Source: Raillietiella orientalis
Lineage: Eukaryota
Reading direction: 5' to 3'
DNA: 64,000 nt
Assembly (NCBI GenBank): GCA_036172245.1
Contig: JAYWIR010000007.1
Location: 3,906,001-3,970,000 of the forward strand
Shown: piece after piece, positions 13,500 to 64,000 of the stretch
How positions within the stretch are numbered: position 1 is the first letter of the stretch
Layout of the letters: the number at the start of each line of letters is the position of its first letter
The notes under the pieces: model-generated
The model's database searches: none
What the model saw: the letters and a program-made list of their open reading frames with translations, nothing else
What the model was told of the DNA's origin: nothing
Position numbers and translations under genes: made by a program

Positions 13500-16400
13500 C
13501 TGACATCGAAGAGGATGGGGAGAGAAGGGGAGGACATGGGGATGTTCATTTCAAATAGTCATGAACGGGGTGGACTGCTCCTGGAGGGAGCAGCGGGTGC
13601 GAAACCACGTGGTCGTGGTTGACAGATCGACGGGTGTGCTGGATGGATCCAGAAGTGAAGCGAACGAACCAACTGTTTCAAGTGGCCTACCTTCACGACC
13701 AATTGTCGTCTTGTGGCTGTCTCCAGGGATGGATGTATCCTGATACCGCAGCTTCCAGAGGTGGATGAGGCGTGTTTTTCTTTCTGTTGCTTTTTTTTTT
13801 TTTTTTTCTCCCTTTTCTTTTTTTTTTTTTTTTTTTCACCTGGAAATGTTGAGGTCACCCATGTAAAGAAAGGCACGCCAATCGTTCCCCAGACAACCGA
13901 TGCTGTGTGCAATTGGGAGGAGCACGAAGATCTCCCATATGCACAATCATTGTTTCAAGAAAATCCCCTTCCTTCGGAGAACCGATCGAAATCTTTACAA
14001 AAACATGAAATGACGTTGGTGACCGCTGGCTGGAATGCTTTCCAGGCCTTGGGATGCCGCGGGGGGAAAAGGAGGCAGAAACTGTGCAATATGATGCCTG
14101 AGGCATCGCAATGCCGCGTCCACAAAGTCGAACTTCATAAACAGAAGACAATTTGGGGAAATCGAAACGAAATAAATTCCGAACGTCCACGAGGATGGAG
14201 GGAGATGGGGAGGACTTGGGGATGTTCATTTCCGATGGTCATGGAGGGCAAGGATTGCTCCTGGAGGGAGTAGCGGAAGCGAAACCACGTGGTCGTGGTT
14301 GACAGATCGACGGGTGAGAAGGATGGATCCAGAAGTGAAGCGAACGAACCAACTGTTCCGAGTGGCCTACCTTCACGACCGGTTGTCGTCTTGTGGCTGT
14401 CCCCAGGGATGGATGTATCCTGATCCCGCAGCTTCCAGAGGTGGATGAGGCGTGTTTTTCCTTCTGTTGCTTTTTTTTTTTTTCTTCCTCTTTCTTTTTT
14501 TTTTTTTCTTCCTTTTCTTTTTTTTTTTTTTTTCCTGGAAATTTTGAAGGCACCGATGTAAAGAAACACCAACCAATCGTTCCCCAGAAAACCGTTCCTG
14601 TGTGCAATCGGGAGGAGCACGAAGATCTCCAAGATGCACAATCATTTTTTCAAGAAAATCCCCTTCCTTCGGAGAACCGATCGAAATCTTTACAAAACCA
14701 TGAAATGACTTTGGTGACCGCTGGCTGGAATGCTTTCCAGGCCTTGGGATGCCGCGGGGGAAAAAGAAGGCAGAAACTGTGGAATATGATGCCTGAGGCA
14801 TCGCAATGCCGCGTCCACAAAGTCGAACTTCATAACAAGAAGACAATTTGCGGAAATCGAAACGAAATAAATTCGGAACGTCCACGTGGATGGGGGGAGA
14901 TGGGGAGGACCTGGGGATGTTCATTACCGATGGTCATGGAGGACAAGGATTGCTCCTGGAGGGAGTAGCGGAAGCGAAACCGCGTGGTCGGGGTGGACAG
15001 ATCGACGGGTGTGGTGGATGGATCCAGAAGTGAAGCGAACGAACCAACTGTTCCGAGTGGCCTACCTTCACGACCGGTTGTCGTCTTGTGGCTGTCTCCA
15101 GGGATGGATGTATCCTGATCCCGCAGCTTCCAGAGGTGGATGAGGCGTGTTTTTCCTTCTGTTGCTTTTTTTTTTTTCTTCCTTTTCTTTTTTTTTTTTT
15201 TTTTTCCACCTGGAAATTTTGAAGGCACCGATGTAAAGAAACACCAACCAATCGTTCCCCAGACAACCGTTCCTGTGTGCAATCGGGAGGAGCACGAAGA
15301 TCTCCAAGATGCACAATCATTTTTTCAAGAAAATCCCCTTCCTTCGGAGAACCGATCGAAATCTTTACAAAACCATGAAATGACTTTGGTGACCGCTGGG
15401 TGGAATGCTTTCCAGGCCTTGGGATGCCGCGGGGGGAAAACGAGGCAGAAATTGTGGAATATGATGCCAGAGGCATCGCAATGCCGCGTCCACAAAGTCG
15501 AACTTCATAACAAGAAGACAATTTGCGGAAATCGAAACGAAATAAATTCCGAACGTCCACGAGGATGGAGGGAGATGGGGAGGACTTGGGGATGTTCATT
15601 TCCGATGGTCATGGAGGGCAAGGATTGCTCCTGGAGGGAGTAGCGGAAGCGAAACCACGTGGTCGTGGTTGACAGATCGACGGGTGAGAAGGATGGATCC
15701 AGAAGTGAAGCGAACGAACCAACTGTTCCGAGTGGCCTACCTTCACGACCGGTTGTCGTCTTGTGGCTGTCCCCAGGGATGGATGTATCCTGATCCCGCA
15801 GCTTCCAGAGGTGGATGAGGCGTGTTTTTCCTTCTGTTGCTTTTTTTTTTTTTTTTCTTCCTTTTCTTTTTTTTTTTTCTTCCTTTCTTTTTTTTTTTCC
15901 ACCTGAAATTTTGAAGGCACCGATGTAAAGAAACACCAACCAATCGTTCCCCAGACAACCGTTCCTGTGTGCAATCGGGAGGAGCACGAAGATCTCCAAG
16001 ATGCACAATCATTTTTTCAAGAAAATCCCCTTCCTTCGGAGAACCGATCGAAATCTTTACAAAACCATGAAATGACTTGGTGACCGCTGGCTGGAATGCT
16101 TTCCAGGCCTTGGGATGCCGCGGGGGGAAAACGAGGCAGAAATTGTGGAATATGATGCCAGAGGCATCGCAATGCCGCGTCCACAAAGTCGAACTTCATA
16201 ACAAGAAGACAATTTGCGGAAATCGAAACGAAATAAATTCGGAACGTCCACGTGGATGGGGGGAGATGGGGAGGACCTGGGGATGTTCATTTCCGATGGT
16301 CATGGAGGGCAAGGATTGCTCCTGGAGGGAGCAGCGGAAGCGAAACCGCGTGGTCGGGGTGGACAGATCGACGGGTGTGAAGGATGGATCCAGAAGTGAA

Positions 16401-19400: not shown

Positions 19401-22400
19401 AAGGCACCGATGTAAAGAAACACCAACCAATCGTTCCCCAGACAACCGTTCCTGTGTGCAATCGGGAGGAGCACGAAGATCTCCAAGATGCACAATCATT
19501 TTTTCAAGAAAATCCCCTTCCTTCGGAGAACCGATCGAAATCTTTACAAAACCATGAAATGACTTTGGTGACCGCTGGCTGGAATGCTTTCCAGGCCTTG
19601 GGATGCCGCGGGGGGAAAAGGAGGCAGAAACTGTGGAATATGATGCCTGAGGCATCGCAATGCCGCGTCCACAAAGTCGAACTTCATAACAAGAAGACAA
19701 TTTGCGGAAATCGAAACGAAATAAATTCGGAACGTCCACGTGGATGGGGGGAGATGGGGAGGACCTGGGGATGTTCATTTCCGATGGTCATGGAGGGCAA
19801 GGATTGCTCCTGGAGGGAGCAGCGGAAGCGAAACCGCGTGGTCGGGGTGGACAGATCGACGGGTGAGAAGGATGGATCCAGAAGTGAAGCGAACGAACCA
19901 ACTGTTCCGAGTGGCCTACCTTCACGACCGGTTGTCGTCTTGTGGCTGTCTCCAGGGATGGATGTATCCTGATCCCGCAGCTTCCAGAGGTGGATGAGGC
20001 GTGTTTTTCCTTCTGTTGCTTTTTTTTTTTTTTTTTCTTCCTTTTTTTTTTTTTTTTTCTTCCTTTTTTTTTTTTTTTTCCACCTGGAAATTTTGAAGGC
20101 ACCGATGTAAAGAAACACCAACCAATCGTTCCCCAGACAACCGTTCCTGTGTGCAATCGGGAGGAGCACGAAGATCTCCAAGATGCACAATCATTTTTTC
20201 AAGAAAATCCCCTTCCTTCGGAGAACCGATCGAAATCTTTACAAAACCATGAAATGACTTTGGTGACCGCTGGGTGGAATGCTTTCCAGGCCTTGGGATG
20301 CCGCGGGGGAAAAGGAGGCAGAAACTGTGCAATATGATGCCTGAGGCATCGCAATGCCGCGTCCACAAAGTCGAACTTCATAACAAGAAGACAATTTGCG
20401 GAAATCGAAACGAAATAAATTCGGAACGTCCACGTGGATGGGGGGAGATGGGGAGGACCTGGGGATGTTCATTACCGATGGTCATGGAGGACAAGGATTG
20501 CTCCTGGAGGGAGTAGCGGAAGCGAAACCGCGTGGTCGGGGTGGACAGATCGACGGGTGTGGTGGATGGATCCAGAAGTGAAGCGAACGAACCAACTGTT
20601 CCGAGTGGCCTACCTTCACGACCGGTTGTCGTCTTGTGGCTGTCTCCAGGGATGGATGTATCCTGATCCCGCAGCTTCCAGAGGTGGATGAGGCGTGTTT
20701 TTCCTTCTGTTGCTTTTTTTTTTCTTCCTTTTCTTTTTTTTTTTTTTTTTTCTTCCTTTTCTTTTTTTTTTTTTTTTTTCCACCTGGAAATTTTGAAGGC
20801 ACCGATGTAAAGAAACACCAACCAATCGTTCCCCAGACAACCGTTCCTGTGTGCAATCGGGAGGAGCACGAAGATCTCCAAGATGCACAATCATTTTTTC
20901 AAGAAAATCCCCTTCCTTCGGAGAACCGATCGAAATCTTTACAAAACCATGAAATGACTTTGGTGACCGCTGGCTGGAATGCTTTCCAGGCCTTGGGATG
21001 CCGCGGGGGGAAAAGGAGGCAGAAACTGTGGAATATGATGCCTGAGGCATCGCAATGCCGCGTCCACAAAGTCGAACTTCATAACAAGAAGACAATTTGC
21101 GGAAATCGAAACGAAATAAATTCGGAACGTCCACGTGAATGGGGGGAGATGGGGAGGACCTGGGGATGTTCATTTCCGATGGTGATGGAGGGCAAGGATT
21201 GCTCCTGGAGGGAGCAGCGGAAGCGAAACCGCGTGGTCGGGGTGGACAGATCGACGGTTGAGAAGGATGGATCCAGAAGTGAAGCGAACGAACCAACGGT
21301 TCCGAGTGGCCTACCTTCACGACCGGTTGTCGTCTTGTGGCTGTCTCCAGGGATGGATGTATCCTGATCCCGCAGCTTCCAGAGGTGGATGAGGCGTGTT
21401 TTTCCTTCTGTTGCTTTTTTTTTTTTTTTTTCTTCCTTTTTTTTTTTTTTTTTCTTCCTTTTCTTTTTTTTTTTTTTTTTCCACCTGGAAATTTTGAAGG
21501 CACCGATGTAAAGAAACACCAACCAATCGTTCCCCAGACAACCCTTCCTGTGTGCAATCGGGAGGAGCACGAAGATCTCCAAGATGCACAATCATTTTTT
21601 CAAGAAAATCCCCTTCCTTCGGAGAACCGATCGAAATCTTTACAAAACCATGAAATGACTTTGGTGACCGCTGGCTGGAATGCTTTCCAGGCCTTGGGAT
21701 GCCGCGGGGGGAAAAGGAGGCAGAAACTGTGGAATATGATGCCTGAGGCATCGCAATGCCGCGTCCACAAAGTCGAACTTCATAACAAGAAGACAATTTG
21801 CGGAAATCGAAACGAAATAAATTCCGAACGTCCACGAGGATGGAGGGAGATGGGGAGGACTTGGGGATGTTCATTTCCGATGGTCATGGAGGGCAAGGAT
21901 TGCTCCTGGAGGGAGTAGCGGAAGCGAAACCACGTGGTCGTGGTTGACAGATCGACGGGTGAGAAGGATGGATCCAGAAGTGAAGCGAACGAACCAACTG
22001 TTCCGAGTGGCCTACCTTCACGACCGGTTGTCGTCTTGTGGCTGTCCCCAGGGATGGATGTATCCTGATCCCGCAGCTTCCAGAGGTGGATGAGGCGTGT
22101 TTTTCCTTCTGTTGCTTTTTTTTTTTTTTTTCTTCCTTTTCTTTTTTTTTTTTTTTTCTTCCTTTTCTTTTTTTTTTTTTTTTTTCCACCTGGAAATTTT
22201 GTAGGCACCGATGTAAAGAAACACCAACCAATCGTTCCCCAGACAACCGTTCCTGTGTGCAATCGGGAGGAGCACGAAGATCTCCAAGATGCACAATCAT
22301 TTTTTCAAGAAAATCCCCTTCCTTCGGAGAACCGATCGAAATCTTTACAAAACCATGAAATGACTTTGGTGACCGCTGGGTGGAATGCTTTCCAGGCCTT

Positions 22401-25400
22401 GGGATGCCGCGGGGGGAAAAGGAGGCAGAAACTGTGGAATATGATGCCTGAGGCATCGCAATGCCGCGTCCACAAAGTCGAACTTCATAACAAGAAGACA
22501 ATTTGCGGAAATCGAAACGAAATAAATTCGGAACGTCCACGTGGATGGGGGGAGATGGGGAGGACCTGGGGATGTTCATTTCCGATGGTCATGGAGGGCA
22601 AGGATTGCTCCTGGAGGGAGTAGCGGAAGCGAAACCGCGTGGTCGGGGTGGACAGATCGACGGGTGTGAAGGATGGATCCAGAAGTGAAGCGAACGAACC
22701 AACTGTTCCGAGTGGCCTACCTTCACGACCGGTTGTCGTCTTGTGGCTGTCTCCAGGGATGGATGTATCCTGATCCCGCAGCTTCCAGAGGTGGATGAGG
22801 CGTGTTTTTCCTTCTGTTGCTTTTTTTTTTTTTTTTCTTCCTTTTCTTTTTTTTTTTTTTTTTCTTCCTTTTCTTTTTTTTTTTTTTTTTTCCACCTGGA
22901 AATTTTGAAGGCACCGATGTAAAGAAACACCAACCAATCGTTCCCCAGACAACCGTTCCTGTGTGCAATCGGGAGGAGCACGAAGATCTCCAAGATGCAC
23001 AATCATTTTTTCAAGAAAATCCCCTTCCTTCGGAGAACCGATCGAAATCTTTACAAAACCATGAAATGACTTTGGTGACCGCTGGGTGGAATGCTTTCCA
23101 GGCCTTGGGATGCCGCGGGGGGAAAAGGAGGCAGAAACTGTGGAATATGATGCCTGAGGCATCGCAATGCCGCGTCCACAAAGTCGAACTTCATAACAAG
23201 AAGACAATTTGCGGAAATCGAAACGAAATAAATTCGGAACGTCCACGTGGATGGGGGGAGATGGGGAGGACCTGGGGATGTTCATTACCGATGGTCATGG
23301 AGGACAAGGATTGCTCCTGGAGGGAGTAGCGGAAGCGAAACCGCGTGGTCGGGGTGGACAGATCGACGGGTGTGGTGGATGGATCCAGAAGTGAAGCGAA
23401 CGAACCAACTGTTCCGAGTGGCCTACCTTCACGACCGGTTGTCGTCTTGTGGCTGTCTCCAGGGATGGATGTATCCTGATCCCGCAGCTTCCAGAGGTGG
23501 ATGAGGCGTGTTTTTCCTTCTGTTGCTTTTTTTTTTTTTTTTTTTCTTCCTTTTCTTTTTTTTTTTTTTCTTCCTTTTCTTTTTTTTTTTCCACCTGGAA
23601 ATTTTGAAGGCACCGATGTAAAGAAACACCAACCAATCGTTCCCCAGACAACCGTTCCTGTGTGCAATCGGGAGGAGCACGAAGATCTCCAAGATGCACA
23701 ATCATTTTTTCAAGAAAATCCCCTTCCTTCGGAGAACCGATCGAAATCTTTACAAAACCATGAAATGACTTTGGTGACCGCTGGGTGGAATGCTTTCCAG
23801 GCCTTGGGATGCCGCGGGGGGAAAAGGAGGCAGAAACTGTGCAATATGATGCCTGAGGCATCGCAATGCCGCGTCCACAAAGTCGAACTTCATAACAAGA
23901 AGACAATTTGCGGAAATCGAAACGAAATAAATTCGGAACGTCCACGTGAATGGGGGGAGATGGGGAGGACCTGGGGATGTTCATTTCCGATGGTGATGGA
24001 GGGCAAGGATTGCTCCTGGAGGGAGCAGCGGAAGCGAAACCGCGTGGTCGGGGTGGACAGATCGACGGTTGAGAAGGATGGATCCAGAAGTGAAGCGAAC
24101 GAACCAACGGTTCCGAGTGGCCTACCTTCACGACCGGTTGTCGTCTTGTGGCTGTCTCCAGGGATGGATGTATCCTGATCCCGCAGCTTCCAGAGGTGGA
24201 TGAGGCGTGTTTTTCCTTCTGTTGCTTTTTTTTTTTTTTTCTTCCTTTTCTTTTTTTTTTTTTCTTCCTTTTCTTTTTTTTTTTTTTTTTTCCACCTGGA
24301 AATTTTGAAGGCACCGATGTAAAGAAACACCAACCAATCGTTCCCCAGACAACCCTTCCTGTGTGCAATCGGGAGGAGCACGAAGATCTCCAAGATGCAC
24401 AATCATTTTTTCAAGAAAATCCCCTTCCTTCGGAGAACCGATCGAAATCTTTACAAAACCATGAAATGACTTTGGTGACCGCTGGCTGGAATGCTTTCCA
24501 GGCCTTGGGATGCCGCGGGGGGAAAAGGAGGCAGAAACTGTGGAATATGATGCCTGAGGCATCGCAATGCCGCGTCCACAAAGTCGAACTTCATAACAAG
24601 AAGACAATTTGCGGAAATCGAAACGAAATAAATTCCGAACGTCCACGAGGATGGAGGGAGATGGGGAGGACTTGGGGATGTTCATTTCCGATGGTCATGG
24701 AGGGCAAGGATTGCTCCTGGAGGGAGTAGCGGAAGCGAAACCACGTGGTCGTGGTTGACAGATCGACGGGTGAGAAGGATGGATCCAGAAGTGAAGCGAA
24801 CGAACCAACTGTTCCGAGTGGCCTACCTTCACGACCGGTTGTCGTCTTGTGGCTGTCCCCAGGGATGGATGTATCCTGATCCCGCAGCTTCCAGAGGTGG
24901 ATGAGGCGTGTTTTTCCTTCTGTTGCTTTTTTTTTTTTTTTTCTTCCTTTTCTTTTTTTTTTTTTTTTTCTTCCTTTTCTTTTTTTTTTTTTTCCACCTG
25001 GAAATTTTGTAGGCACCGATGTAAAGAAACACCAACCAATCGTTCCCCAGACAACCGTTCCTGTGTGCAATCGGGAGGAGCACGAAGATCTCCAAGATGC
25101 ACAATCATTTTTTCAAGAAAATCCCCTTCTTCGGAGAACCGATCGAAATCTTACAAAACCATGAAATGACTTTGGTGACCGCTGGGTGGAATGCTTTCCA
25201 GGCCTTGGGATGCCGCGGGGGGAAAAGGAGGCAGAAACTGTGGAATATGATGCCTGAGGCATCGCAATGCCGCGTCCACAAAGTCGAACTTCATAACAAG
25301 AAGACAATTTGCGGAAATCGAAACGAAATAAATTCGGAACGTCCACGTGAATGGGGGAGATGGGGAGGACCTGGGGATGTTCATTACCGATGGTCATGGA

Positions 25401-28400
25401 GGACAAGGATTGCTCCTGGAGGGAGTAGCGGAAGCGAAACCGCGTGGTCGGGGTGGACAGATCGACGGGTGTGGTGGATGGATCCAGAAGTGAAGCGAAC
25501 GAACCAACTGTTCCGAGTGGCCTACCTTCACGACCGGTTGTCGTCTTGTGGCTGTCTCCAGGGATGGATGTATCCTGATCCCGCAGCTTCCAGAGGTGGA
25601 TGAGGCGTGTTTTTCCTTCTGTTGCTTTTTTTTTTTTTTTTTTTTCTTCCTTTTCTTTTTTTTTTTTTTTTCTTCCTTTTTTTTTTTTTTTTTTTTTTTC
25701 CACCTGGAAATTTTGAAGGCACCGATGTAAAGAAACACCAACCAATCGTTCCCCAGACAACCGTTCCTGTGTGCAATCGGGAGGAGCACGAAGATCTCCA
25801 AGATGCACAATCATTTTTTCAAGAAAATCCCCTTCCTTCGGAGAACCGATCGAAATCTTTACAAAACCATGAAATGACTTTGGTGACCGCTGGCTGGAAT
25901 GCTTTCCAGGCCTTGGGATGCCGCGGGGGGAAAACGAGGCAGAAATTGTGGAATATGATGCCAGAGGCATCGCAATGCCGCGTCCACAAAGTCGAACTTC
26001 ATAACAAGAAGACAATTTGCGGAAATCGAAACGAAATAAATTCCGAACGTCCACGAGGATGGAGGGAGATGGGGAGGACTTGGGGATGTTCATTTCCGAT
26101 GGTCATGGAGGGCAAGGATTGCTCCTGGAGGGAGTAGCGGAAGCGAAACCACGTGGTCGTGGTTGACAGATCGACGGGTGAGAAGGATGGATCCAGAAGT
26201 GAAGCGAACGAACCAACTGTTCCGAGTGGCCTACCTTCACGACCGGTTGTCGTCTTGTGGCTGTCCCCAGGGATGGATGTATCCTGATCCCGCAGCTTCC
26301 AGAGGTGGATGAGGCGTGTTTTTCCTTCTGTTGCTTTTTTTTTTTTTTTTCTTCCTTTTCTTTTTTTTTTTTTTTCTTCCTTTTCTTTTTTTTTTTTTTT
26401 TTTCCACCTGGAAATTTTGAAGGCACCGATGTAAAGAAACACCAACCAATCGTTCCCCAGACAACCGTTCCTGTGTGCAATCGGGAGGAGCACGAAGATC
26501 TCCAAGATGCACAATCATTTTTTCAAGAAAATCCCCTTCCTTCGGAGAACCGATCGAAATCTTTACAAAACCATGAAATGACTTTGGTGACCGCTGGGTG
26601 GAATGCTTTCCAGGCCTTGGGATGCCGCGGGGGGAAAAGGAGGCAGAAACTGTGGAATATGATGCCTGAGGCATCGCAATGCCGCGTCCACAAAGTCGAA
26701 CTTCATAACAAGAAGACAATTTGCGGAAATCGAAACGAAATAAATTCGGAACGTCCACGTGGATGGGGGGAGATGGGGAGGACCTGGGGATGTTCATTTC
26801 CGATGGTCATGGAGGGCAAGGATTGCTCCTGGAGGGAGTAGCGGAAGCGAAACCGCGTGGTCGGGGTGGACAGATCGACGGGTGTGGTGGATGGATCCAG
26901 AAGTGAAGCGAACGAACCAACTGTTCCGAGTGGCCTACCTTCACGACCGGTTGTCGTCTTGTGGCTGTCTCCAGGGATGGATGTATCCTGATCCCGCAGC
27001 TTCCAGAGGTGGATGAGGCGTGTTTTTCCTTCTGTTGCTTTTTTTTTTTTTTTTCTTCCTTTTCTTTTTTTTTTTTTTTTTCTTCCTTTTCTTTTTTTTT
27101 TTTTTTTTTCCACCTGGAAATTTTGAAGGCACCGATGTAAAGAAACACCAACCAATCGTTCCCCAGACAACCGTTCCTGTGTGCAATCGGGAGGAGCACG
27201 AAGATCTCCAAGATGCACAATCATTTTTTCAAGAAAATCCCCTTCCTTCGGAGAACCGATCGAAATCTTTACAAAACCATGAAATGACTTTGGTGACCGC
27301 TGGGTGGAATGCTTTCCAGGCCTTGGGATGCCGCGGGGGGAAAAGGAGGCAGAAACTGTGGAATATGATGCCTGAGGCATCGCAATGCCGCGTCCACAAA
27401 GTCGAACTTCATAACAAGAAGACAATTTGCGGAAATCGAAACGAAATAAATTCGGAACGTCCACGTGGATGGGGGGAGATGGGGAGGACCTGGGGATGTT
27501 CATTTCCGATGGTCATGGAGGGCAAGGATTGCTCCTGGAGGGAGTAGCGGAAGCGAAACCGCGTGGTCGGGGTGGACAGATCGACGGGTGTGGTGGATGG
27601 ATCCAGAAGTGAAGCGAACGAACCAACTGTTCCGAGTGGCCTACCTTCACGACCGGTTGTCGTCTTGTGGCTGTCTCCAGGGATGGATGTATCCTGATCC
27701 CGCAGCTTCCAGAGGTGGATGAGGCGTGTTTTTCCTTCTGTTGCTTTTTTTTTTTTTTTTCCTTTTCTTTTTTTTTTTTTTCTTCCTTTTCTTTTTTTTT
27801 TTTTTTTTCCACCTGGAAATTTTGAAGGCACCGATGTAAAGAAACACCAACCAATCGTTCCCCAGACAACCGTTCCTGTGTGCAATCGGGAGGAGCACGA
27901 AGATCTCCAAGATGCACAATCATTTTTTCAAGAAAATCCCCTTCCTTCGGAGAACCGATCGAAATCTTTACAAAACCATGAAATGACTTTGGTGACCGCT
28001 GGGTGGAATGCTTTCCAGGCCTTGGGATGCCGCGGGGGGAAAAGGAGGCAGAAACTGTGGAATATGATGCCTGAGGCATCGCAATGCCGCGTCCACAAAG
28101 TCGAACTTCATAACAAGAAGACAATTTGCGGAAATCGAAACGAAATAAATTCGGAACGTCCACGTGAATGGGGGGAGATGGGGAGGACCTGGGGATGTTC
28201 ATTTCCGATGGTCATGGAGGGCAAGGATTGCTCCTGGAGGGAGCAGCGGAAGCGAAACCGCGTGGTCGGGGTGGACAGATCGACGGTTGAGAAGGATGGA
28301 TCCAGAAGTGAAGCGAACGAACCAACGGTTCCGAGTGGCCTACCTTCACGACCGGTTGTCGTCTTGTGGCTGTCTCCAGGGATGGATGTATCCTGATCCC

Positions 28401-29141
28401 GCAGCTTCCAGAGGTGGATGAGGCGTGTTTTTCCTTCTGTTGCTTTTTTTTTTTTTTTCTTCCTTTTCTTTTTTTTTTTCTTCCTTTTCTTTTTTTTTTT
28501 TTTTTCCACCTGGAAATTTTGAAGGCACCGATGTAAAGAAACACCAACCAATCGTTCCCCAGACAACCCTTCCTGTGTGCAATCGGGAGGAGCACGAAGA
28601 TCTCCAAGATGCACAATCATTTTTTCAAGAAAATCCCCTTCCTTCGGAGAACCGATCGAAATCTTTACAAAACCATGAAATGACTTTGGTGACCGCTGGC
28701 TGGAATGCTTTCCAGGCCTTGGGATGCCGCGGGGGGAAAAGGAGGCAGAAACTGTGGAATATGATGCCTGAGGCATCGCAATGCCGCGTCCACAAAGTCG
28801 AACTTCATAACAAGAAGACAATTTGCGGAAATCGAAACGAAATAAATTCCGAACGTCCACGAGGATGGAGGGAGATGGGGAGGACTTGGGGATGTTCATT
28901 TCCGATGGTCATGGAGGGCAAGGATTGCTCCTGGAGGGAGTAGCGGAAGCGAAACCGCGTGGTCGTGGTTGACAGATCGACGGGTGAGAAGGATGGATCC
29001 AGAAGTGAAGCGAACGAACCAACTGTTCCGAGTGGCCTACCTTCACGACCGGTTGTCGTCTTGTGGCTGTCCCCAGGGATGGATGTATCCTGATCCCGCA
29101 GCTTCCAGAGGTGGATGAGGCGTGTTTTTTTCCTTCTGTTG

Positions 29142-29174
<33 letters not shown>

Positions 29175-29224
29175 CTTCCTTTTTTTCTTTCTTTTTTTTT
29201 TTTTTTTTTTTTTTTTCTTCCTTT

Positions 29225-29265
<41 letters not shown>

Positions 29266-32200
29266 CCACCTGGAAATTTTTGTAGGCACCGATGTAGAAA
29301 AAACACCAAGCCAATCTCGTTCCCCAGACAACCGTTCCTGTGTGCAATCGGGAGGAGCACGAAGATCTTTTAAGATGCACAATCATTTTTTCAAGAAAAT
29401 CCCTTCCTTCGGAGAACCGATCGAAATCTTTACAAAACCATGAAATGACTTTGGTGACCGCTGGGTGGAATGCTTTCCAGGCCTTGGGATGCCGCGGGGG
29501 GAAAAGGAGGCAGAAACTGTGGAATATGATGCCTGAGGCATCGCAATGCCGCGTCCACAAAGTCGAACTTCATAACAAGAAGACAATTTGCGGAAATCGA
29601 AACGAAATAAATTCGGAACGTCCACGTGAATGGGGGGAGATGGGGAGGACCTGGGGATGTTCATTACCGATGGTCATGGAGGACAAGGATTGCTCCTGGA
29701 GGGAGTAGCGGAAGCGAAACCGCGTGGTCGGGGTGGACAGATCGACGGGTGTGGTGGATGGATCCAGAAGTGAAGCGAACGAACCAACTGTTCCGAGTGG
29801 CCTACCTTCACGACCGGTTGTCGTCTTGTGGCTGTCTCCAGGGATGGATGTATCCTGATCCCGCAGCTTCCAGAGGTGGATGAGGCGTGTTTTTCTTTCT
29901 GTTGCTTTTTTTTTTTTGTTTTCTCCCTTTTCTTTTTTTTTTTTTTTTTTCACCTGGAAATGTTGAGGGCACCCATGTAAAGAAAGGCACGCCAATCGTT
30001 CCCCAGACAACCGATGCTGTGTGCAATTGGGAGGAGCACGAAGATCTCCCATATGCACAATCATTGTTTCAAGAAAATCCCCTTCCTTCGGAGAACCGAT
30101 CGAAATCTTTACAAAACCATGAAATGACGTTGGTGACCGCTGGCTGGAATGCTTTCCAGGCCTTGGGATGCCGCGGGGGGAAAACGAGGCAGAAATTGTG
30201 GAATATGATGCCAGAGGCATCGCAATGCCGCGTCCACAAAGTCGAACTTCATAACAAGAAGACAATTTGCGGAAATCGAAACGAAATAAATTCGGAACGT
30301 CCACGTGAATGGGGGGAGATGGGGAGGACCTGGAGATGTTCATTTCCGATGGTCATGGAGGGCAAGGATTGCTCCTGGAGGGAGCAGCGGAAGCGAAACC
30401 GCGTGGTCGGGGTGGACAGATCGACGGGTGAGAACGATGGATCCAGAAGTGAAGCGAACGAACCAACGGTTCCGAGTGGCCTACCTTCACGACCGGTTGT
30501 CGTCTTGTGGCTGTCTCCAGGGATGGATGTATCCTGATCCCGCAGCTTCCAGAGGTGGATGAGGCGTGTTTTTCCTTCTGTTGCTTTTTTTTTTTCTTCC
30601 TTTTCTTTTTTTTTTTTTTTTTTCTTCCTTTTCTTTTTTTTTTTTTTTTTTTCCACCTGGAAATTTTGAAGGCACCGATGTAAAGAAACACCAACCAATC
30701 GTTCCCCAGACAACCGTTCCTGTGTGCAATCGGGAGGAGCACGAAGATCTCCAAGATGCACAATCATTTTTTCAAGAAAATCCCCTTCCTTCGGAGAACC
30801 GATCGAAATCTTTACAAAACCATGAAATGACTTTGGTGACCGCTGGGTGGAATGCTTTCCAGGCCTTGGGATGCCGCGGGGGGAAAAGGAGGCAGAAACT
30901 GTGGAATATGATGCCTGAGGCATCGCAATGCCGCGTCCACAAAGTCGAACTTCATAACAAGAAGACAATTTGCGGAAATCGAAACGAAATAAATTCGGAA
31001 CGTCCACGTGAATGGGGGGAGATGGGGAGGACCTGGGGATGTTCATTTCCGATGGTCATGGAGGGCAAGGATTGCTCCTGGAGGGAGCAGCGGAAGCGAA
31101 ACCGCGTGGTCGGGGTGGACAGATCGACGGGTGAGAAGGATGGATCCAGAAGTGAAGCGAACGAACCAACGGTTCCGAGTGGCCTACCTTCACGACCGGT
31201 TGTCGTCTTATGGCTGTCTCCAGGGATGGATGTATCCTGATCCCGCAGCTTCCAGAAGGTGGATGAGGCGTGTTTTCCTTCTGTTGCTTTTTTTTTTTTT
31301 TTTTTTCTTCCTTTTCTTTTTTTTTTTTTTCTTGCTTTTCTTTTTTTTTTTTCCACCTGGAAATTTTGAAGGCACCGATGTAAACACCAACCAATCGTTC
31401 CCCAGACAACGTTCCTGTGTGCAAGGAAATTTAGCATGAAGATCTCAAGATGTTACCGTCATTTCTTCAGAAAGTCCCCTTCCTTGAAGGCGGTCGAATC
31501 TTTAAATAACATAAAATGGCTGAATTATGGAAGCATTTCCCGGGTAGGATGCCGCGGGGGGAAAAAGGAGGCAGAAACTGTGGAATATGATGCCTGAGGC
31601 ATCGCAATGCCCGCGTCCACAAAGTCGAACTTCATAACAAGAAGACAATTTGCGGAAATCGAAACGAAATAAATTCGGAACGTCCACGTGAATGGGGGAG
31701 ATGGGGAGGACCTGGGGATGTTCATTTCCGATGGTCATGGAGGGCAAGGATTGCTCCTGGAGGGAGCAGCGGAAGCGAAACCGCGTGGTCGGGGTGGACA
31801 GATCGACGGGTGAGAAGGATGGATCCAGAAGTGAAGCGAACGAACCAACGGTTCGAGTGGCCTACCTTCACGACCGGTTGTCGTCTTGTGGCTGTCTCCA
31901 GGGATGGATGTATCCTGATCCCGCAGCTTCAGAGGTGGATGAGGCGTGTTTTCCCTTCTGTTGCTTTTTTTTTTTTTTTTTCTTCCTTTTTTTTTTTTTT
32001 TTTCTTCCTTTTCTTTTTTTTTTTTTTTTTTCCACCTGGAAATTTTGAAGGCACCGATGTAAAGAAACACTAACCAATCGTTCCCCAGACAACCGTTCCT
32101 GTGTGCAATCGGGAGGAGCACGAAGATCTCCAAGATGCACAATCATTTTTTCAAGAAAATCCCCTTCCTTCGGAGAACCCATCGAAATCTTTACAAAACC

Positions 32201-32572
32201 ATGAAATGACGTTGGTGACCGCTGGCTGGAATGCTTTCCAGGCCTTGGGATGCCGCGGGGGGAAAAGGAGGCAGAAACTGTGGAATATGATGCCAGAGGC
32301 ATCGCAATGCCGCGTCCACAAAGTCGAACTTCATAAACAGAAGACAATTTGGGAAAATCGAAACGAAATAAATTCCGAACGTCCACGAGGATGGAGGGAG
32401 ATGGGGAGGACCTGGGCATGTTCATTTCCGATGGTCATGGAGGACAAGGATTGCTCCTGGAGGGAGTAGCGGAAGCGAAACCGCGTGGTCGGGGTGGACA
32501 TATCGACGGGTGAGAAGGATGGATCCAGAAGTGAAGCGAACGAACCAACTGTTCCTTGTGGCCTACCTTCAC
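13500..32572. repeat. Tandem array B: ~700-bp monomer, ~27 copies, each with a Tn-CTTCCTTTTC-Tn-CTTCCTTTTC-Tn tract
   Basis: 27 poly-T tracts from ~13790 to ~31965 (mean spacing ~699 bp) with near-identical sequence between them. Sharp right edge at CCTTCAC|TTGG (~32572); the left edge fades into noisy sequence. Confidence 0.98.
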
Positions 32573-41772: not shown

Positions 41773-42929
41773 TCATATCTCGGAAGGGCACTTACTGATA
41801 TACGAGGAATCAAAGAACACAATAGTGATTGTGATGTCATCTCGAAATGCTCTCACTAAATCTTCTGGAAAGCTTAGGAGTTGTGAAACTCTCGCATTGT
41901 CTAGTCCATAATCTGTGGAACTCAAAGCATGACGTATCAGATGTGTTGCTGCATTAGCATCAATTGGTTTTTTTTGTAAGGCTTCTTGTCTTTGCACCAA
42001 GAGTTGTTCCACTTGTTTCAGCGTCAAAGTTTTCTGAGGTAAGACTAGGGGGTTGAGAGCTGTTCTGCCACACATGTGTTCTCCAATCAGAGCCACCACT
42101 TCTGCAGGTGTGAGAAATTCCCAAAAACCATCTGTTCCCAATATGAGAAATTTATCTTTGGCAGTTAGTCGATGATAGGTAACTTCAGGTTGTGCACTCA
42201 GATAAGGAGGTGTGTGGTAATGTGGTGGTATGATGCTTGGACTGCACATTGGCACGAACAATTTATTTTGCAAATTCACATTCCACTTATATCGGAAATC
42301 ACCAAAGGCTCTCAGAGGACTCAACTGACCAAGTAATCTTCCATCATGAATGATTGTATGACTTTCTGATGCAGGATGTTCATGAAACAGGCGATGCATT
42401 TCTTTGGCATTTTCGTGATTATGCTCATTGGTTAATTTTTTTGCCACCCAGTGATTCGCATCAGTTTCCTGGCCAAGCACAGCTTGGCAATCACCCACAT
42501 TACCTACATGCAAGTGGGTACCATCAATGTGTGCTACACAACCAACACAACCAGACAAGGCCACAGCCATGGGAATCATCTGATTTGCTGCTTCTCTAGA
42601 GAGGTCATCATCCAATCTCAGAAATGCCTTCTCAAATGCATCCTGAGTGCTTACATTGCTGAACTTTGTTCTTAATTCTTTTAAATATGCATGAAAACTT
42701 TTTTTGTAAAGGTTTTCCAGATGTTTATCAGTGTTGTCCATGACATAAGATGTGTACACTTCCAATAGATTCAATTCTTCTACTGAATTGACTTGATCAA
42801 TTTTTCGAATGCATTCATCCAAAGCATCTTTGCAAAGCAGTGAGGTAGCAACATAGTGCATCAACCTTTTGGTAACCACTTCAACACAATTATTTCCACC
42901 ATGCCCATCAAAAACTCCAAAAAGCAAAC
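41773..42929 (-). CDS. PDP1: Pyruvate dehydrogenase phosphatase catalytic subunit (PP2C family), main exon; 5' exon(s) not located
   Basis: 384-aa open frame with LFGVFDGHGG, HVGNVGDCQAVLG, RLLGQLSPLRAFGDFRYKW, TPPYLSAQPEV, DKFLILGTDG, NAATHLIRHAL, RDDITITIVFF; preceded by a TTGCAG splice acceptor. Confidence 0.93.
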
Positions 42930-43649
42930 CTGCAATAAACCATAATCACCGAATCCCACAACAGATAGAACCTACTAAACAAGATCAAAGCTCGGTTTGC
43001 TACTATTCTTTAACTACAACTTTGAAATTCATTCATGCTGAGGGAGATAGTCATTTTTTTCAAGAATCCTGCTGAACTTGATTGTTCTTCAGTTTGTTTT
43101 GCAATGCACGCGTGTTAAGAGAACTAGAAAACTCACATGCACCACATGAAATGAAATGCAAAAGTACATCTGATGCATAAAGTATTGGGTTAGATTCTAG
43201 AAATGCATGGAAGCTCATTTTTCTCGGTGCTGATATCACTACAGAGCAATCAACCTGTAATACCTTTGCAATTGCACGAAAAAGCCAATCAATTGCAGAG
43301 ATTCCGTCAAGAATACGAGGAACCTGCTCGAAAATATCATTTTGTGAAGGAAGGTCGAAATACAGAAAAACAAAAAGTTACGTGCGACTGTGCAAATCTT
43401 GAAACTGAATTCTGCACTCTCAGGGAGTGCATGTTTTCATCACGCTCACTGACCAATGATGATTCTGCACATCATTCATCGGAAAAAGGAATGGACATTT
43501 CGAAATCAAATCAGAATACACAAAGTGGTGGTTGTGTGCCACTCGATTCGTGCACTGTGACGGTGCCCCGACTACTAGGAATTGTCATTGCACTTCATGC
43601 AGGAAGAAACGCGATGGAGGGAACCAACGAAATACGTTCTGTACCATTT

Positions 43650-46313: not shown

Positions 46314-49300
46314 TCAGACGCGAAGGCTGTCTTCTACGAGCGCTTCCACGCTCATCTTCTTTAATATGATGTTATTAGCCGCTCCCTCGATCGTTTCGAA
46401 ATCAACATTTGGGAAGGTTTTCCAGAATCCTGTCTTCTGGGACCACAACCGATTGTGCGGGCTTCTGATACCGTGCAGAATTCTCGCCACGTCGAATCCC
46501 GACCACGTTTTGTCCTCCATGTGCCTGTCAAGGAATTGCTTCACAGCAAGTTCAAGTTCCTTTTCGACCTGAAAAACGCATTGAGAATCGGACTTCTTCT
46601 CTATCCGCTTGCAAACCTCGGGTTCATTTGCCCCGACGTCTCGAAGAACCGCGGCTCGAACATCTTGCTCGACGTACTGAGACGACAGGGCTTCCAAGTG
46701 GATGGCCGATGTCCTGAGGAACAGAAGTCGGTTTGCCAAGATCACCAGTCTCCGAACTCACTTGGAGCACGCCGCAAGGAAAAAGGATAGCAAGTGAAAT
46801 CTCAGACCCAACAGGTGCATCGCCGAGGCGTAAACGTCATCCAGCAGCGTATCCAATTCGCTTCCCCCCATCTGCTCTTCCACGTGCACGCAGAAGCTCC
46901 AGTCGGAGAAACGTACGTTAATGCGGTGCTGCTTTGACAATTTCCACAGGAGGTCACGAACCACGAACGGCTCGAACCCCATCACGTCGGCAACGCTTGC
47001 AACGCTGATGGACGCCTGCCTCCGGATCCTTTTATTCAAACGGAGAGTCCCACTCAGGAAAGAACTCTGGGTCATCGCTTTAGTGTCCGCACGAACCACG
47101 AGGCCACTTACGTTCTCCAGAATATCTCGGATATTTTTCGTCCCTGAGTAATCTGTCAGTATGCACGTGGCGTATAAACACCGCTGCAACGACACTTTTG
47201 AGGTCGGGTGCTGTGACAACAGCAGCAGTAACATTTCTATTGTTTCCTGGTTCAAATCCAACTTCTGCTGCAGCTCGCTGGCGGACAACGTTTTGTAATA
47301 ACCCTTTGATCCTGAGGTTGTAGAACGTTTGGGAGGCGAGAACACCGCCTCCAGCAATTTGCGAATCATGAGACGGGTAGTCCTGTGTGCGTTAATCTCC
47401 CTCTTCAGTTCGAAGACAGCATCATCCTGCAAACTTTCACTAAAAGCCTGGCAACTGATCTCATCTACCTGATCGGCGCACAACACGCAACACTCTGCTT
47501 GGCACTCCTTCGTATCGAGCATCGATATATGGGACACGAAACTATCGAATCCCAAAGGCATATCGTAAAACACCAGGTACCTCACCCCGTAGTAGCACAG
47601 ACCAACAGTGAAAGAGACACTTGCTACAAGGATGTGAATCTGCCCTAAAATTGCTCCAAGGATGCCGAAGCGCCTGCGGAAATGCAACCAAGGTTACCCT
47701 TCTGTAATCTGTCCTCCACCTGCCGGCGGTGATCCGACGACGATTGCTCATGGTACGTTTCCAGAATGGGCTTCTTCATCGACGCGTTGCAGCCCTGGAA
47801 GCAACGACAGCGTCGGCTCAAGTCAACAAAACTCGACTCGCACCTCCAGAAAAAAGTGGATCACAAGTGCCACTCGCTTACAGCTCTGGGACTGCGAACA
47901 GCAAATCAGCATGGGAAAAGAGACATTCTTTTGGATCAATTCAGTCAGTTTCTGAAATGGGAACCACTTCCAGGTGGTTTACTCCTCCGAAGCAACTTAC
48001 TTTTTCTTTCTCGGAAGTACGCACGGCATTCACCACGAGGCTGTTGTACTCTTCCTGATATTTCACCGTGGCAACATGCGAATCGGCATCGCCAGCGGCA
48101 ATGCTCTTCCGAATTTCGGCAACCCCCGACGACGTCACGCAGGCGCACAGCGCTAAGATCGGCACGCCCAAGGATTGCCGAACGAACTAGCGATGCAAAT
48201 CATTAACAAGACACATAGCGTACGTTCTGTCATGAACATGAATTCAAAGTTTAGAAATGACAGCCTCTTTCACACGTTCGATTCGCGGCACATTTCATAA
48301 AATGTGCCCCTATTCTCTTCCAAAGAGGAGGATTGATATCGACGGGTGTGATATCGATGAATGATTTTCGAAGCCTACTTATTTAAGGAGTCTGCGAAGA
48401 AATTTCCAGGCGTACAGATTATCGTTATTTTCTTTGATTTTATTCGCTGTAAATCGATGAACTTATCTCGTTACACAACCACATGCAAAAACCGAAATCT
48501 AGGGAAAGGAAATCGCCATTTCTCCAGCAAATATGGGTGAATTCACCCTTATTTGCTTTGCGCGGAAGCAAGCATGCAAGACTCCTGCAGTTGACCGGAG
48601 GCAACTGCGAGGCTCTTTGCAAAAGGGCCTCCCAGTTGTGTTTTTGAAGGAACCTTTTCGACCGAATGGAATCGGGTAGAAACATGCACTCCTTTCTTCC
48701 TAGTGATTACCTGCACAAAATGCCAGTAGATCGGATGGAAATTGAGAGAAGACATGGTCAAACACTGCGCTTCGGGAACGCACACGAAGGCTATTTTCTG
48801 ACCAATCTCCAGCAAATTGTTCACTTGGTGCAAAAAGGTCTTTGGAGTAATGTAGAGGATGGACGCACATCCTTTCTTGAGCATTTTTAGCATTCTATGT
48901 TGCTCACTCCATGTCATTTCTTCATGGAGGAATATGCCCTTTAGGAAGTTGGGTAATTCCCTCACCTAGAACGCATGGAAGTGATTTGGCAGGTGAAAAT
49001 TTCAACTTACCTCTTTTTCCATTTTGGAAATCAAGGAAGTGACAACAACAGTCAAGGCCTTGCATTTCTGGTAAAAAAGATGCGCACATGCTTGATAACA
49101 CAATTGCTGACTCCGAACACAATTATTGATCAAAAGTGTACTGGAACCACTCAGAATTCGATAAAGTACTTGTTCATGATGTGGACGAACACCAACACCA
49201 GAAGCTATTTCCATCATGGATAATGAACAATCAGCTGAAATGATTACAAATTTCAAGTTAGACACACAAGTCAGTCTGGTCCATTGCTGCACAAATTCAA

Positions 49301-51982
49301 TACGGGGTTAAGGGCACAAGTGTTCACATGTACCAAAAATAATTTATCTATTTGCAAACCGGCACCGTTCAATTATGAGACTGCAAACTTTCTGGTCCAT
49401 AAAGTTTTGCTGATGTTGGATTGATGCATTGGCATTTCGATTGCATGGAATATTTGTTTCTGACTGGTATAAATAGAATGATCAAATTACTCGAATTTGT
49501 GAGAAAGGAAAATGTGCCAGAGACATCCTGTGCATGTTTACTCAGAGATGAATATCTTTTTCTTCAATGAAAGAAAATGGCTGTTATGCACATCAAACCA
49601 AGTCATGTACGAGCATTGTTTAACGGACCCAAAGAGACTGGAATCTACAAATAATCCTACATGTTTCCACTATCAGTTTTCATATTGCAGTTTTTAATCA
49701 TAATTCAATGATGTTTAGATTCCACTAAAGTCTATAGGGCAGAACCAAGGCTCAATGCATCCTATGACTTTTGTTAGGACTGTGACATTCACATCGGAAA
49801 CATTCGATTCCAAAATGTCATCTTTAATAATGATAAAGGCGCACGAGTAATGTGCATTTTCTTTGCAATAGTCGTTAACAATCTTCGAGACGCTTCAATC
49901 CGGTAGTTGATTTTACTGACTCATCAAACAAAGCATGCCACACGCACCACTGTTGAAATTCTTTATCATACTGAAAACCACTTGCAGGAAAATTTTTGCT
50001 GCCTTTAATTAGAACAACTTTCATTCAGCTAATAAACGAACACCCATGTATACTTATGGCTATCATTTAGGGTTTCATTTATCCATCTTAAAGTAACAGT
50101 CCACATCAAAAATTCGTTAATCGGAACGTATTTCAAAACTTTCACAATACTCAAAAATAATTTCAATTCCTTTTACTTGTAACTTTAAAAGATTCAACAT
50201 TACCTTCCTCATTGATCTGTTCCTTGGAAAAATAAAATGGAAGTTTGGCATCTCCAAAGTCCTAAGAAAAAGAAGAAAACCATACATGAGGAGCATCCCA
50301 TTCAAATCTTGATGGCAGTAAACAGCAGTGCTAAAAATTATGAGTATGATATACTACTCCATGCATACATGTATTTTCGAGTTTATTATGCAAAAACTGT
50401 ACAGTGTAATAGTAAACATAAATAGGGATACCAATTGCATTCCAAAATGGATGCTGTGTATGATAATGAATTTATGTTGTGCAAAAATCAAAATAAAAAC
50501 ACAGTCAGTACAGCACAATTTTAGACAAAGAAATTATCCACAACAAGCTCAAGGATACATACAAGTTTTAATAGGCATTCATCAACTTGTTTCTTGGATG
50601 TTCTGCTTGTGTCCAAGCCATCTGATGCTTCCTTGAGATCAAGGTCTGTTTTACAGGAATCGACGTTTCCTGATGAAACTTCATCTGCAATACAGAAGTT
50701 AATACAAAAGCATGAAGGTTTCATCTCAACAATTACATATCACAATCAGCATGTTATGGGAAGTAGATTCAGATAATCTTTTTGCTTACATTTATGATAT
50801 TGTAATATATATATAACGATATCAAAAAGATGCACAACTTTCTTCAATGAAATAATTAAACAGTATTAATTTGAAAAATGTATGATCAGTTGCTTTTCAC
50901 TGAATTACAAACAATCAGAAAATATTTAATCTGTAGCAATAAGTTTGGCATTCTGAAATCACTGGCCAACATACTGCTGTTCTGACTGGTTGGTTTAGAA
51001 AAAAATTCAAAAATTATTTTGATCCAAAACTTTCGAGTAGATTATCTGCTAAGCAAAACATTCACAATGCTACCTGTACTTACTATTGGATTATCTAATA
51101 CAAACATATGTACAGTTCACAATGAACAGTTCTTTTAAAATACATAGTATTGCTTAAATTACATGCAATTTACTGTAAACACTGTTCTTTATGAACTCAT
51201 ATAGAGGTTATAAACAACAATCACATACCTGACACTTTTAGTTCATCTTTCTCTTGTAGTTTCCTCATTTTATATTTCCATTTTTCTCGCATAAATTTTT
51301 TACGTTTATTTGATTTATGTTTAACAAATGTTTTCTTCCTTAAATTCAGTTTACAAAAGTTGGGCTTATTGCACAGCTTAGTAGTTTTTCTCTTATTCAT
51401 TGACTTTGAAACAAGAGACTCTGGAAGTGCCTTTGAATCCATGGCATTTAATGTAGAGTTCAGCTCAGGATTTCCTTCTGCATGCAATAAATCCGTGTGT
51501 TTTATCAAGTCCGAATATTTCTTGCTTTTGATAGAAATGGCAAAAACATTTTCAGCTAAGTCCTTTGACTCCTTTGTTGACATATGACTAATTACACTAA
51601 CAGGTAGTAAATCTTTTTTTTTTGTACTAATAGATGTCATTTTACATTCTGGAGGTTGCACATCAAAATTACAGGCTTCATCACAGCAAGTTTTTCGCTT
51701 TTTACACCAATTACTGTCAGTTTGCTCATTTACATTATCAATTTTACACTGTGGAAACTTTTCCACTTCATCTGGGTTTATCCCATTAACAGTAGATTGT
51801 TCAACATAAGAATTGGCTTCTAATGGTTTCTTTTTAATTGTCACCAGTTTTAATTTGGAAAGTAACTTAGCATTGAACAGAGAACTTGATGGGACCTTCT
51901 TACACTTCTGACTACCTTTAGGCTTGCAGAGTTCAGCACCCCAAATTCTGCGTTTTGTTGAAGTTTCCTTTTCTTCAATCAT
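46314..51982 (-). CDS. RECQL4: RECQL4-like protein with degenerate helicase motifs (multi-exon; 5' end unresolved)
   Basis: N-terminal IWGAEL and NFCKLNLRKKTF...KWK; helicase-fold segments RILSGSSTLL, LTVVVTSLIS, IAFVCVPEAQC...NFHPIY, ETYHEQ, ILVASVSFTVGL...VRYLVFYDMP; RECQL4-type C-terminus SGFDVARILHGIRSP...FWK. About 11 exons joinable by phase-consistent GT-AG introns with no internal stop. Confidence 0.88.
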
Positions 51983-62194: not shown

Positions 62195-63231
<1,037 letters not shown>

Positions 63232-63274: not shown

Positions 63275-63684
63275 TTATTTTGTTCCTGAACTAGCTAAAG
63301 GATTACGGAGTACAAGAATGACTGAGTCACCTCTCAAAAACATTTTTGAAATATAGCGATCCTTATTAACGGGCTTGGCCTTCTTTCGGCCTCTACCTGT
63401 GCGAGGTAGTTCTGTCCACATCTCCTTAACATTCTCCAGTACCATATTACAGTGTCTATCAAATGCTTTTACTCTTCCCAGTAACTTTTTGTTGTTGCGA
63501 CTGTTGATGAGTACTTGCGTATTATTTTTGACTGATTGCGTGAGGACGGATAACGGACCAGTGCTAAACTCTTCTTCTTCCCTTTTCGAAAGTTCTTCCT
63601 GAGACATTTCGGATTTGGGTTTGTTGGTCAGTGAAGCCCTATGAAAGTCATATACATAATGAAAATCTAGACATACACTTACAT
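63275..63684 (-). CDS. SNRPD2: Small nuclear ribonucleoprotein Sm D2
   Basis: Start codon split AT (63684-63683) | 44-nt GTAAG...ATAG intron | G (63638); protein [12 protein letters not shown]...[19 protein letters not shown]...[20 protein letters not shown]...[17 protein letters not shown]. Confidence 0.97.
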
Positions 63685-64000
63685 AATAATTTAGAAATCC
63701 TCTAATTTCCAAATTCTCTTTTAAAGTTTGTCTCTGAAACATTCAAAAACATTAAGCTGAAAAAGCTACTAACAAATCGCGCAAGTCGTTTGTTGATTCA
63801 CTGATATACTGTATTTTAAATAAATACGAAGTAGAGAATTCCTTTAGTATAACCGCACTAAAATTACCGCATTTAAGTAAATTATTAAAAGCTTTGCCAA
63901 GGACACAACATTGCATTCAATTTCTCATCATAACATTGCATTCCGGATACACTCACGCTCACATGCACAGCGTCACACTTACCTCTCACTGATGAAGCTT

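Follow-up and report, generated by a model that had tools for sequence, protein, structure and literature searches.

A highly diverged RecQ4 gene of Raillietiella orientalis with its ATPase motifs lost, probably a long-maintained pseudo-helicase

Introduction

Does RECQL4 depend on its activity as a helicase? This question still stands, and the reports from flies and from mouse differ. The question is raised by a gene of Raillietiella orientalis that is located on the minus strand, at 51982-46314, of a stretch of 64,000 nt (GenBank assembly GCA_036172245.1, contig JAYWIR010000007.1, positions 3,906,001 to 3,970,000 of the forward strand). This whole stretch is called “the window” in the following, and all positions refer to it. 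An earlier note, made from the sequence alone, had described the gene as an apparently intact RECQL4 gene with dead ATPase/helicase motifs. It had proposed that the product is a selected non-catalytic scaffold, possibly an intermediate between RECQL4 and stand-alone Sld2. Is this a real and intact RecQ4 gene, has its product lost catalysis, and has selection held the reading frame open since then? Our analysis favours an intact, non-catalytic RecQ4 gene that has been maintained for long as a pseudo-helicase, with a probability of roughly 60%.

Results

Gene model and family assignment

Ten exons can be joined in phase from the predicted start codon, the ATG at 51982, to the TGA stop codon at 46316-46314. 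The spliced coding sequence has a length of 3087 nt, i.e. 1028 codons without any internal stop plus the TGA; the splicing in phase and without stops agrees with the earlier note. All nine introns have GT..AG borders and all phases agree. Five introns are 45-53 nt long and the other four 301-969 nt; the acceptors are mostly pyrimidine-rich, and the short introns (about 48 nt) have TTTCAG acceptors. An in-frame TAA is found four codons upstream of the predicted start, which itself is 13 residues ahead of a conserved WG block. In the homologues, region I of Sld2 precedes this block.

One of the splice junctions is present in public data. A single public run from a related sample (hereafter X1), labelled “DNA?”, shares sequence with the window, amounting to 7% of the sampled words, and was used in the form of Logan contigs. 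Its contigs reach 13 of 30 bins but leave the motif-bearing exons 4-8 uncovered; the contig depth is 2-5, and the differences to the assembly are listed only in part. In one contig of 151 nt, 46713 is followed directly by 46763, apart from one altered base, so that exactly intron 9 (46761-46714, 48 nt, GTGAGT..CAG) is missing. The contig could represent cDNA, a retrocopy or an intron-less allele, and because each of these origins implies splicing, we conclude that intron 9 is, or was, spliced at the predicted sites. X1 also covers intron 1 and is therefore not pure mRNA.

These observations bear on the explanation that the gene is an artefact, i.e. that errors of sequencing or assembly produced it, or that its exons were over-fitted so as to bypass the stops of a dead locus. 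Hand-built models of eukaryotic exons can indeed dodge stop codons by the choice of introns, and five of the nine introns are merely 45-53 nt long. However, every intron has GT..AG borders with mostly pyrimidine-rich acceptors, homology is continuous over each exon junction without a missing or extra block in comparison to 31 homologues, and one junction is independently present in X1. In addition, the motif changes described below consist of many multi-base substitutions, and not of indels. An artefact is thus highly improbable.

To which family does the gene belong? A HMMER search of 1.84 billion representative sequences yielded 67 proteins at E ≤0.001, and RecQ4/RECQL4 proteins are the only sequence relatives, in agreement with the family named in the earlier note. 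The best match has an E value of 3.5e-14 and 30% identity, and none of the 67 exceeds 35%. The nearest matches that carry a name are the “ATP-dependent DNA helicase Q4” of Limulus, Nymphon and Coccinella, and they are joined by an unnamed product of Phyllotreta. Five top full-length matches were checked by Pfam, and DEAD, Helicase_C and zf-CCHC were found in all five and Drc1-Sld2 in four of them. When 36 long RecQ4 proteins were used as tblastn queries, a single locus was detected in the window (51361-46335, minus strand, E values down to about 6e-29), and no second RecQ4-like locus within its 64 kb. Exon 9 compared with the sequences of solved structures retrieved human RECQL4 (5lst, E=1.9e-5). 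Three further searches were negative: Pfam did not detect DEAD, Helicase_C or another helicase family in the single exon open reading frames (ORFs), a word-indexed search of longer proteins with exon 9 gave 5228 candidates but none at E ≤0.001, and an Rfam scan of the window gave 0 matches. Sequence comparison thus places this arthropod gene in the RecQ4/RECQL4 family, as a genuine and intact but highly diverged member.

Loss of the ATPase motifs

The spliced product was aligned with 31 of the 67 matches, namely those with lengths of 1150-1700 aa. Columns that are at least 90% identical among these 31 homologues are termed near-invariant; 167 such columns are located in the helicase core and the C-terminal part. 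In the following, the homologue consensus of each motif is given first and the Raillietiella orientalis reading second.

Exon 4 (49234-49011) starts lobe 1 of the helicase and contains a degenerate motif 0 (SFRPGQE to GVRPHHE, 49193-49173) and a dead motif I or Walker A (STGSGKSL to NCVRSQQL, 49124-49101). Exon 5 (48965-48711) follows with a dead motif II (IDEAHC to VPEAQC, 48779-48762) and a degenerate aromatic loop, which reads TMSSLNFHP (48758-48732). A degenerate motif III (LTATA to LCACV, 48150-48136) is encoded in exon 6 (48186-48001). Lobe 2 starts in exon 7 (47951-47844) with a degenerate motif IV region, LICCSQSQ (47909-47886), and in exon 8 (47794-47698) the YHAG site has become YHEQ (47755-47744). 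Exon 9 (47644-46762) carries the dead motifs V (VATVAFGMGI to VASVSFTVGL, 47627-47598) and VI (VQEIGRAGRDGL to VSHISMLDTKEC, 47537-47502), the latter with the arginine finger lost. The motif readings on which the earlier note had relied (Walker A, DEAH, aromatic loop, III, YHAG, V and VI) are thus all in the sequence as claimed.

The helicases of superfamily 2 (SF2) require the P-loop lysine and the arginine finger of motif VI. In this gene, the Gly-Lys-Ser of Walker A is replaced by Ser-Gln-Gln, the Asp and the His of motif II are gone, and motif VI has no arginine in place. Because these residues are lost, the product is predicted to be unable to bind or hydrolyse ATP in the manner of an SF2 helicase and hence to have no helicase action. 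As an enzyme homologue without catalytic residues, it is a candidate pseudoenzyme. One could argue that the protein is a still-active ATPase or helicase that uses non-canonical residues, and the glutamate of motif II as well as some framework residues have indeed remained. We regard this as very unlikely in view of the combined losses in Walker A, motif II and motif VI, all the more so as the substitution K525A alone is described as ATP-binding-deficient for mouse Recql4 (PMC6636780).

Are these losses specific for the catalytic residues, or do they merely reflect the high divergence? Outside the ATPase motifs, 70 of 136 near-invariant columns are kept, but within them only 6 of 31 (Fisher p=0.0012). 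The difference persists when the comparison is confined to the core (6/31 in motifs versus 44/90 outside, p=0.0055), and also for polar, glycine and proline columns (3/24 versus 26/65). Expressed as retention of the formerly invariant columns, the values are 19% for the motifs, 49% for the non-motif core and 57% for the C-terminal part (26/46). The alignment to orthologues, which the earlier note had named as a check, therefore bears out its statement that the loss is concentrated on catalytic residues. The hydrophobic scaffold fared better, again as the note had it: 47 of 78 hydrophobic near-invariant columns are kept, versus 29 of 89 columns with polar residues, glycine or proline.

The motif loss is unique among the retrieved proteins. 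Each of the 31 full-length homologues retains at least 28 of the 31 motif columns, and a motif VI of the form G[RK][AS]GR is present in 64 of the 67 matches, the other three being C-terminal fragments that start downstream of it. The gene is also much more diverged than its relatives: in the helicase core its identity to the homologues is 0.28, versus 0.58 for the homologues among themselves, and in the C-terminal part, where the drop is smaller, the corresponding values are 0.24 and 0.41.

The C-terminal module and the N-terminal region

Downstream of the motifs, exon 9 encodes an R4ZBD-like domain and bridging helices. An AlphaFold model of exon 9, computed with 46 homologues as alignment, has a mean confidence (pLDDT) of 79.7 and a predicted template modelling score (pTM) of 0.74; as the model leans on an alignment of canonical homologues, these values denote compatibility with the fold and not proof of folding. 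A Foldseek search with this model against the PDB yielded 5lst as the sole match at E <0.001 (E=1.5e-14, query-normalised TM score 0.55). The model thus indicates that the RecQ4-specific C-terminal module, i.e. the R4ZBD fold together with the bridging helices, is present in exon 9. Exon 10 (46713-46314) encodes the C-terminal domain. Here, the ARIFHGIxSP block is kept as ARILHGIRSP (46487-46458), the retention of which the earlier note had pointed out, and the WGR..FWR region is also found.

Both zinc sites have been lost. In the structure of the human protein, the zinc of the R4ZBD is held by three Cys and one His, as described in PMC5490261. The corresponding columns are C in 26, C in 28, C in 27 and H in 28 of the 31 homologues, and P, R, S and Y in this gene (47345-47295). 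These ligands are not universal, since the displayed homologues P0004 and P0010, with intact ATPase motifs, are without three or all four of them. The second site is the CCHC zinc knuckle. Exon 2 (50684-50563, residues 252-292) occupies its place, and in the alignment with the 31 homologues the knuckle aligns to a gap, so that its absence, noted earlier, is verified.

The N-terminal region is encoded by the lysine-rich exon 1 (51982-51229, residues 1-251), exon 2 and exon 3 (50261-50204, residues 293-311), which contributes a linker ahead of the helicase core. Exon 1 retains the WG block (51949-51929) and the W..R block (51715-51692). It also encodes a basic/aromatic segment, NFCKLNLRKK...KWKYK (51361-51269, residues 208-238), that aligns with the consensus N-NFV-INLKKK...WK-K, the second Sld2-like region. 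For human and frog RecQ4, the stretch upstream of the knuckle is described to strongly enhance nucleic-acid binding (PMC4757822). The region ahead of the core comprises 311 residues, while the homologues have a median of 635 (range 461-888). It has 0 serine/threonine-proline (S/T-P) sites, where about 1.9 are expected by composition and every homologue has at least 1 (median 5).

Region I of Sld2 was searched for in several ways. A homologue profile of 65 positions gave a best E value of 1.5 over the six-frame pieces of at least 12 aa in the window. Pfam detected no Drc1-Sld2 among 23 upstream ORFs, of which 18 are on the minus strand and lie between the gene and 56162, and five are further upstream. 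Regular expressions and simple patterns likewise gave nothing convincing in the window. A diverged or split exon could have escaped all of these searches.

Selection on the reading frame

If the frame had not been under selection, how long would it have stayed open? Unconstrained substitution of the coding sequence was simulated with 300 runs per level. With 0.05 substitutions per site, a single run of the 300 still had an open frame, and from 0.1 upwards none of the 300 did. To change 56-73% of the residues, 0.4-0.7 substitutions per site are needed, which led to 31-40 stops on average in simulations with substitutions only. Neutral change sufficient to erase the motifs would thus have closed the frame, suggesting that selection held it open during the greater part of the period after the loss of catalysis. 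Furthermore, the uneven retention across the column classes is not predicted by uniform neutral decay. A third line of argument is the X1 contig from which intron 9 is missing. The simulation disfavours a young decaying duplicate and argues for a long-maintained non-catalytic protein.

What has been retained would fit a scaffold. The RecA-like hydrophobic framework, the R4ZBD-like fold, the bridging helices, the ARI(L/F)HGIxSP block and the basic/aromatic N-terminal segment remain, and because a helicase-shaped body, the C-terminal module and a segment of the nucleic-acid-binding type are thus left, the product may act as a non-catalytic scaffold that binds DNA or RNA and docks proteins. Of this, only the sequence features have been observed; the fold and the binding are inferred.

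Several observations weigh against this reading. The first group comes from X1. In contigs with 95-99% identity, all four listed coding differences are nonsynonymous. In a contig with 84% identity in exon 9, three nonsynonymous and one synonymous change are among the differences listed, and in another one with 84% identity, over codons 86-115, 15 nonsynonymous and five synonymous single-base changes are listed, with the frame open. By manual count, the coding contigs have 12 differences in about 485 nt, versus seven in about 375 nt for the non-coding ones. The differences look like weak or no present-day constraint; as the contigs may hold errors or paralogues, we take this as a warning and not as a measurement. 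Secondly, there is no RNA run among the public runs that share sequence with the window. Thirdly, no AATAAA is present within 700 nt past the stop codon, and the only related signal, an ATTAAA, is 704 nt after it and uninformative. In addition, the searches of the window did not recover region I, which the organisms studied require, two large tandem-repeat arrays are close to the gene, and the support from the exon 9 model is limited by its dependence on canonical homologues, as stated above.

Several of these points also speak for a recently silenced pseudogene. According to this explanation, a long-lived dead-helicase protein or a fast-evolving paralogue has now lost constraint but has not yet acquired a stop or a frameshift. 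The mostly nonsynonymous differences in X1, with a coding divergence not below the non-coding one, the missing RNA run, the lack of a canonical polyadenylation signal near the stop, the repeat-rich surroundings and the joint loss of region I, both zinc sites and the ATPase motifs would all be compatible with it. In contrast, nine pairs of splice sites and 1028 codons are intact, and since 0.05 neutral substitutions per site already close the frame in 299 of 300 simulations, any drift would have to be very young. The evidence from X1 consists of single contigs with low depth and partly listed differences, and even its 84%-identity contig over codons 86-115 remains open. We consider a silenced pseudogene unlikely and retain the long-maintained pseudo-helicase as the favoured reading. 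With respect to the selected scaffold proposed in the earlier note, the simulation speaks for selection in the long term, whereas the X1 differences weigh against constraint at present.

Only RecQ4 or repurposed paralogue

Is this gene the sole RecQ4 of its lineage? Because region I, the zinc knuckle and the CDK-type (cyclin-dependent kinase) S/T-P sites are missing along with the ATPase motifs, we give about even odds to two possibilities: the gene is the sole RecQ4, with a 5′ exon that escaped recognition or a replication role supplied elsewhere, or it is an old repurposed paralogue.

The latter explanation places a canonical, catalytically intact RecQ4 with region I elsewhere in the genome, which would carry out replication and repair and leave this copy free for another role, and it differs from the favoured reading only in the status as sole orthologue. 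The acceleration is specific for this gene, with a core identity of 0.28 versus 0.58, while in the same window a pyruvate dehydrogenase phosphatase is 47-52% identical to insect proteins and proteasome alpha-6 is close to the human protein. Not only region I and the knuckle, but also the S/T-P sites have been lost, and flies reportedly cannot do without the helicase domain (PMC3926958, citing Capp 2009, Xu 2009 and Crevel 2012). Moreover, the 84%-identity contigs of X1 over parts of exons might stem from further copies. However, a second RecQ4-like locus is not present in the 64-kb window, and as neither the organism nor any near relative is represented in the protein collections, nothing speaks positively for a second copy. 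An old paralogue is a serious candidate, with a likelihood somewhat short of one half.

A stronger version of the favoured reading is that an arthropod lineage has no RecQ4 other than this gene, which is without ATPase, without both zinc sites and without a recognisable region I, and nevertheless under selection. This combination appears doubtful. If it were true, the helicase-shaped body and the C-terminal domain would serve the one conserved function of RecQ4 without catalysis, and the lineage would start replication without the classical Sld2 module, or with one that is too diverged to be recognised. It would also contrast with Drosophila, in which the helicase domain is reported to be essential.

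Composition, sequence variants and genomic surroundings

The base composition shifts within the gene. Exons 1-4 have a G+C content at third codon positions (GC3) of 0.29-0.37 and long AT-rich introns (GC 0.28-0.35), and exons 5-10 have a GC3 of 0.58-0.78 and mostly introns of 45-53 nt with a GC content of 0.49-0.55. Regional GC-biased conversion or a composite origin could account for the shift.

If the donor of exon 5 is read through (48660-48710), the frame stays open for 54 codons, and the sequence VITRKKGVHV resembles the next conserved segment. Because of this resemblance, the tblastn matches extend into the intron after exon 5. The read-through might have been a remnant of a duplication that included the first part of exon 6, but this idea was dropped, as nucleotide similarity between the two is absent; the resemblance is probably due to chance.

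The two X1 contigs with 84% identity cover 51609-51759 (24 differences) and 46836-46931 (15 differences), and the neighbouring contigs are 97-99% identical. Of the 20 differences listed for the former, 14 cluster at 51650-51690, and its frame is open. Either a further copy of the sequence or a locally hypervariable region could be the cause.

The window also contains other genes. A single ORF of 390 codons on the minus strand (41773-42945) encodes a PP2C-family pyruvate dehydrogenase phosphatase, which shares 47-52% identity with its mitochondrial orthologues across many orders of insects. This phosphatase and the RecQ4 matches point to an arthropod that has no close relative in the protein collections; a nematode, which the short introns with TTTCAG acceptors had suggested, was rejected on these grounds. 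Exons of proteasome alpha-6, which align closely to the human protein, are located on the plus strand at 62523-63131, and an LSM-domain gene lies on the opposite strand at 63275-63742. Two tandem arrays were also found. The larger one (13513-32572) has units of about 700 bp, with 28 consecutive plus-strand blastn segments that are 90-98% identical to the unit 20001-20700. It has long ORFs on both strands, for which Pfam gave only low-complexity noise, and is either a satellite or a very repetitive gene. The second one (about 6000-12600) has a period of about 640 bp, a GC content of 0.59 and a strong A-over-T skew.

Discussion

If the favoured reading is correct, a natural, long-maintained RecQ4 in which all ATPase motifs are destroyed while the fold and the C-terminal domain are conserved represents an evolutionary experiment that points to a scaffold function. 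The gene would then show which surfaces selection preserves once catalysis is gone. We found no description of a natural pseudo-helicase RecQ4 in searches of one open-access library, which is not proof of absence.

The closest comparison is with the metazoan RecQ4/RECQL4 proteins (5LST; Limulus, Nymphon, Phyllotreta, Coccinella), the only family matched by either sequence or fold. After the N-terminus, the domain order is the same from the WG block to the ARIFHGIxSP block, i.e. WG, W..R, the basic/aromatic segment, two RecA-like lobes, the R4ZBD-like module, the bridging helices and the C-terminal domain. In contrast to these proteins, 25 of the 31 near-invariant ATPase-motif columns are replaced, the knuckle is absent, all four R4ZBD ligands are exchanged, region I was not found, the N-terminal region has half the usual length and the number of S/T-P sites is 0.

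A functional precedent for a RecQ4 that works only as a scaffold is available from mouse. Animals with Recql4 K525A are described as “strikingly normal”, whereas truncating mutations act like a null (Castillo-Tandazo et al. 2019, PMC6636780). The R. orientalis protein would likewise be a full-length RecQ4 without ATP binding, as predicted from its motifs. The mouse variant, however, is one laboratory substitution in a protein with intact N-terminus and zinc sites, while here the loss is natural, affects all motifs and extends to N-terminal features. For flies, the discussion in PMC3926958 reports the helicase domain to be essential; the title of a 2026 paper states that small amounts of a helicase-deficient truncated protein suffice for replication (PMC13076768).

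The ancestral protein is described as an Sld2-RecQ helicase fusion, the parts of which were separated several times, i.e. in fungi, nematodes, placozoa and euglenozoa, and nematodes keep only SLD-2 (Gaggioli et al. 2014, PMC3926958). Like the stand-alone Sld2 proteins (yeast Sld2, C. elegans SLD-2), the R. orientalis gene is a lineage-specific departure from this fusion. The direction differs: stand-alone Sld2 keeps region I without a helicase domain, whereas the R. orientalis gene keeps a helicase-shaped body without a detectable region I. The suggestion that the gene is an intermediate on the way to Sld2 is not borne out, because a retained helicase-like body and an undetectable region I, together with an N-terminal region of 311 residues and no S/T-P sites, are the reverse of C. 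elegans SLD-2. As the organism is an arthropod, the change in R. orientalis would be an event independent of the loss of the helicase in nematodes.

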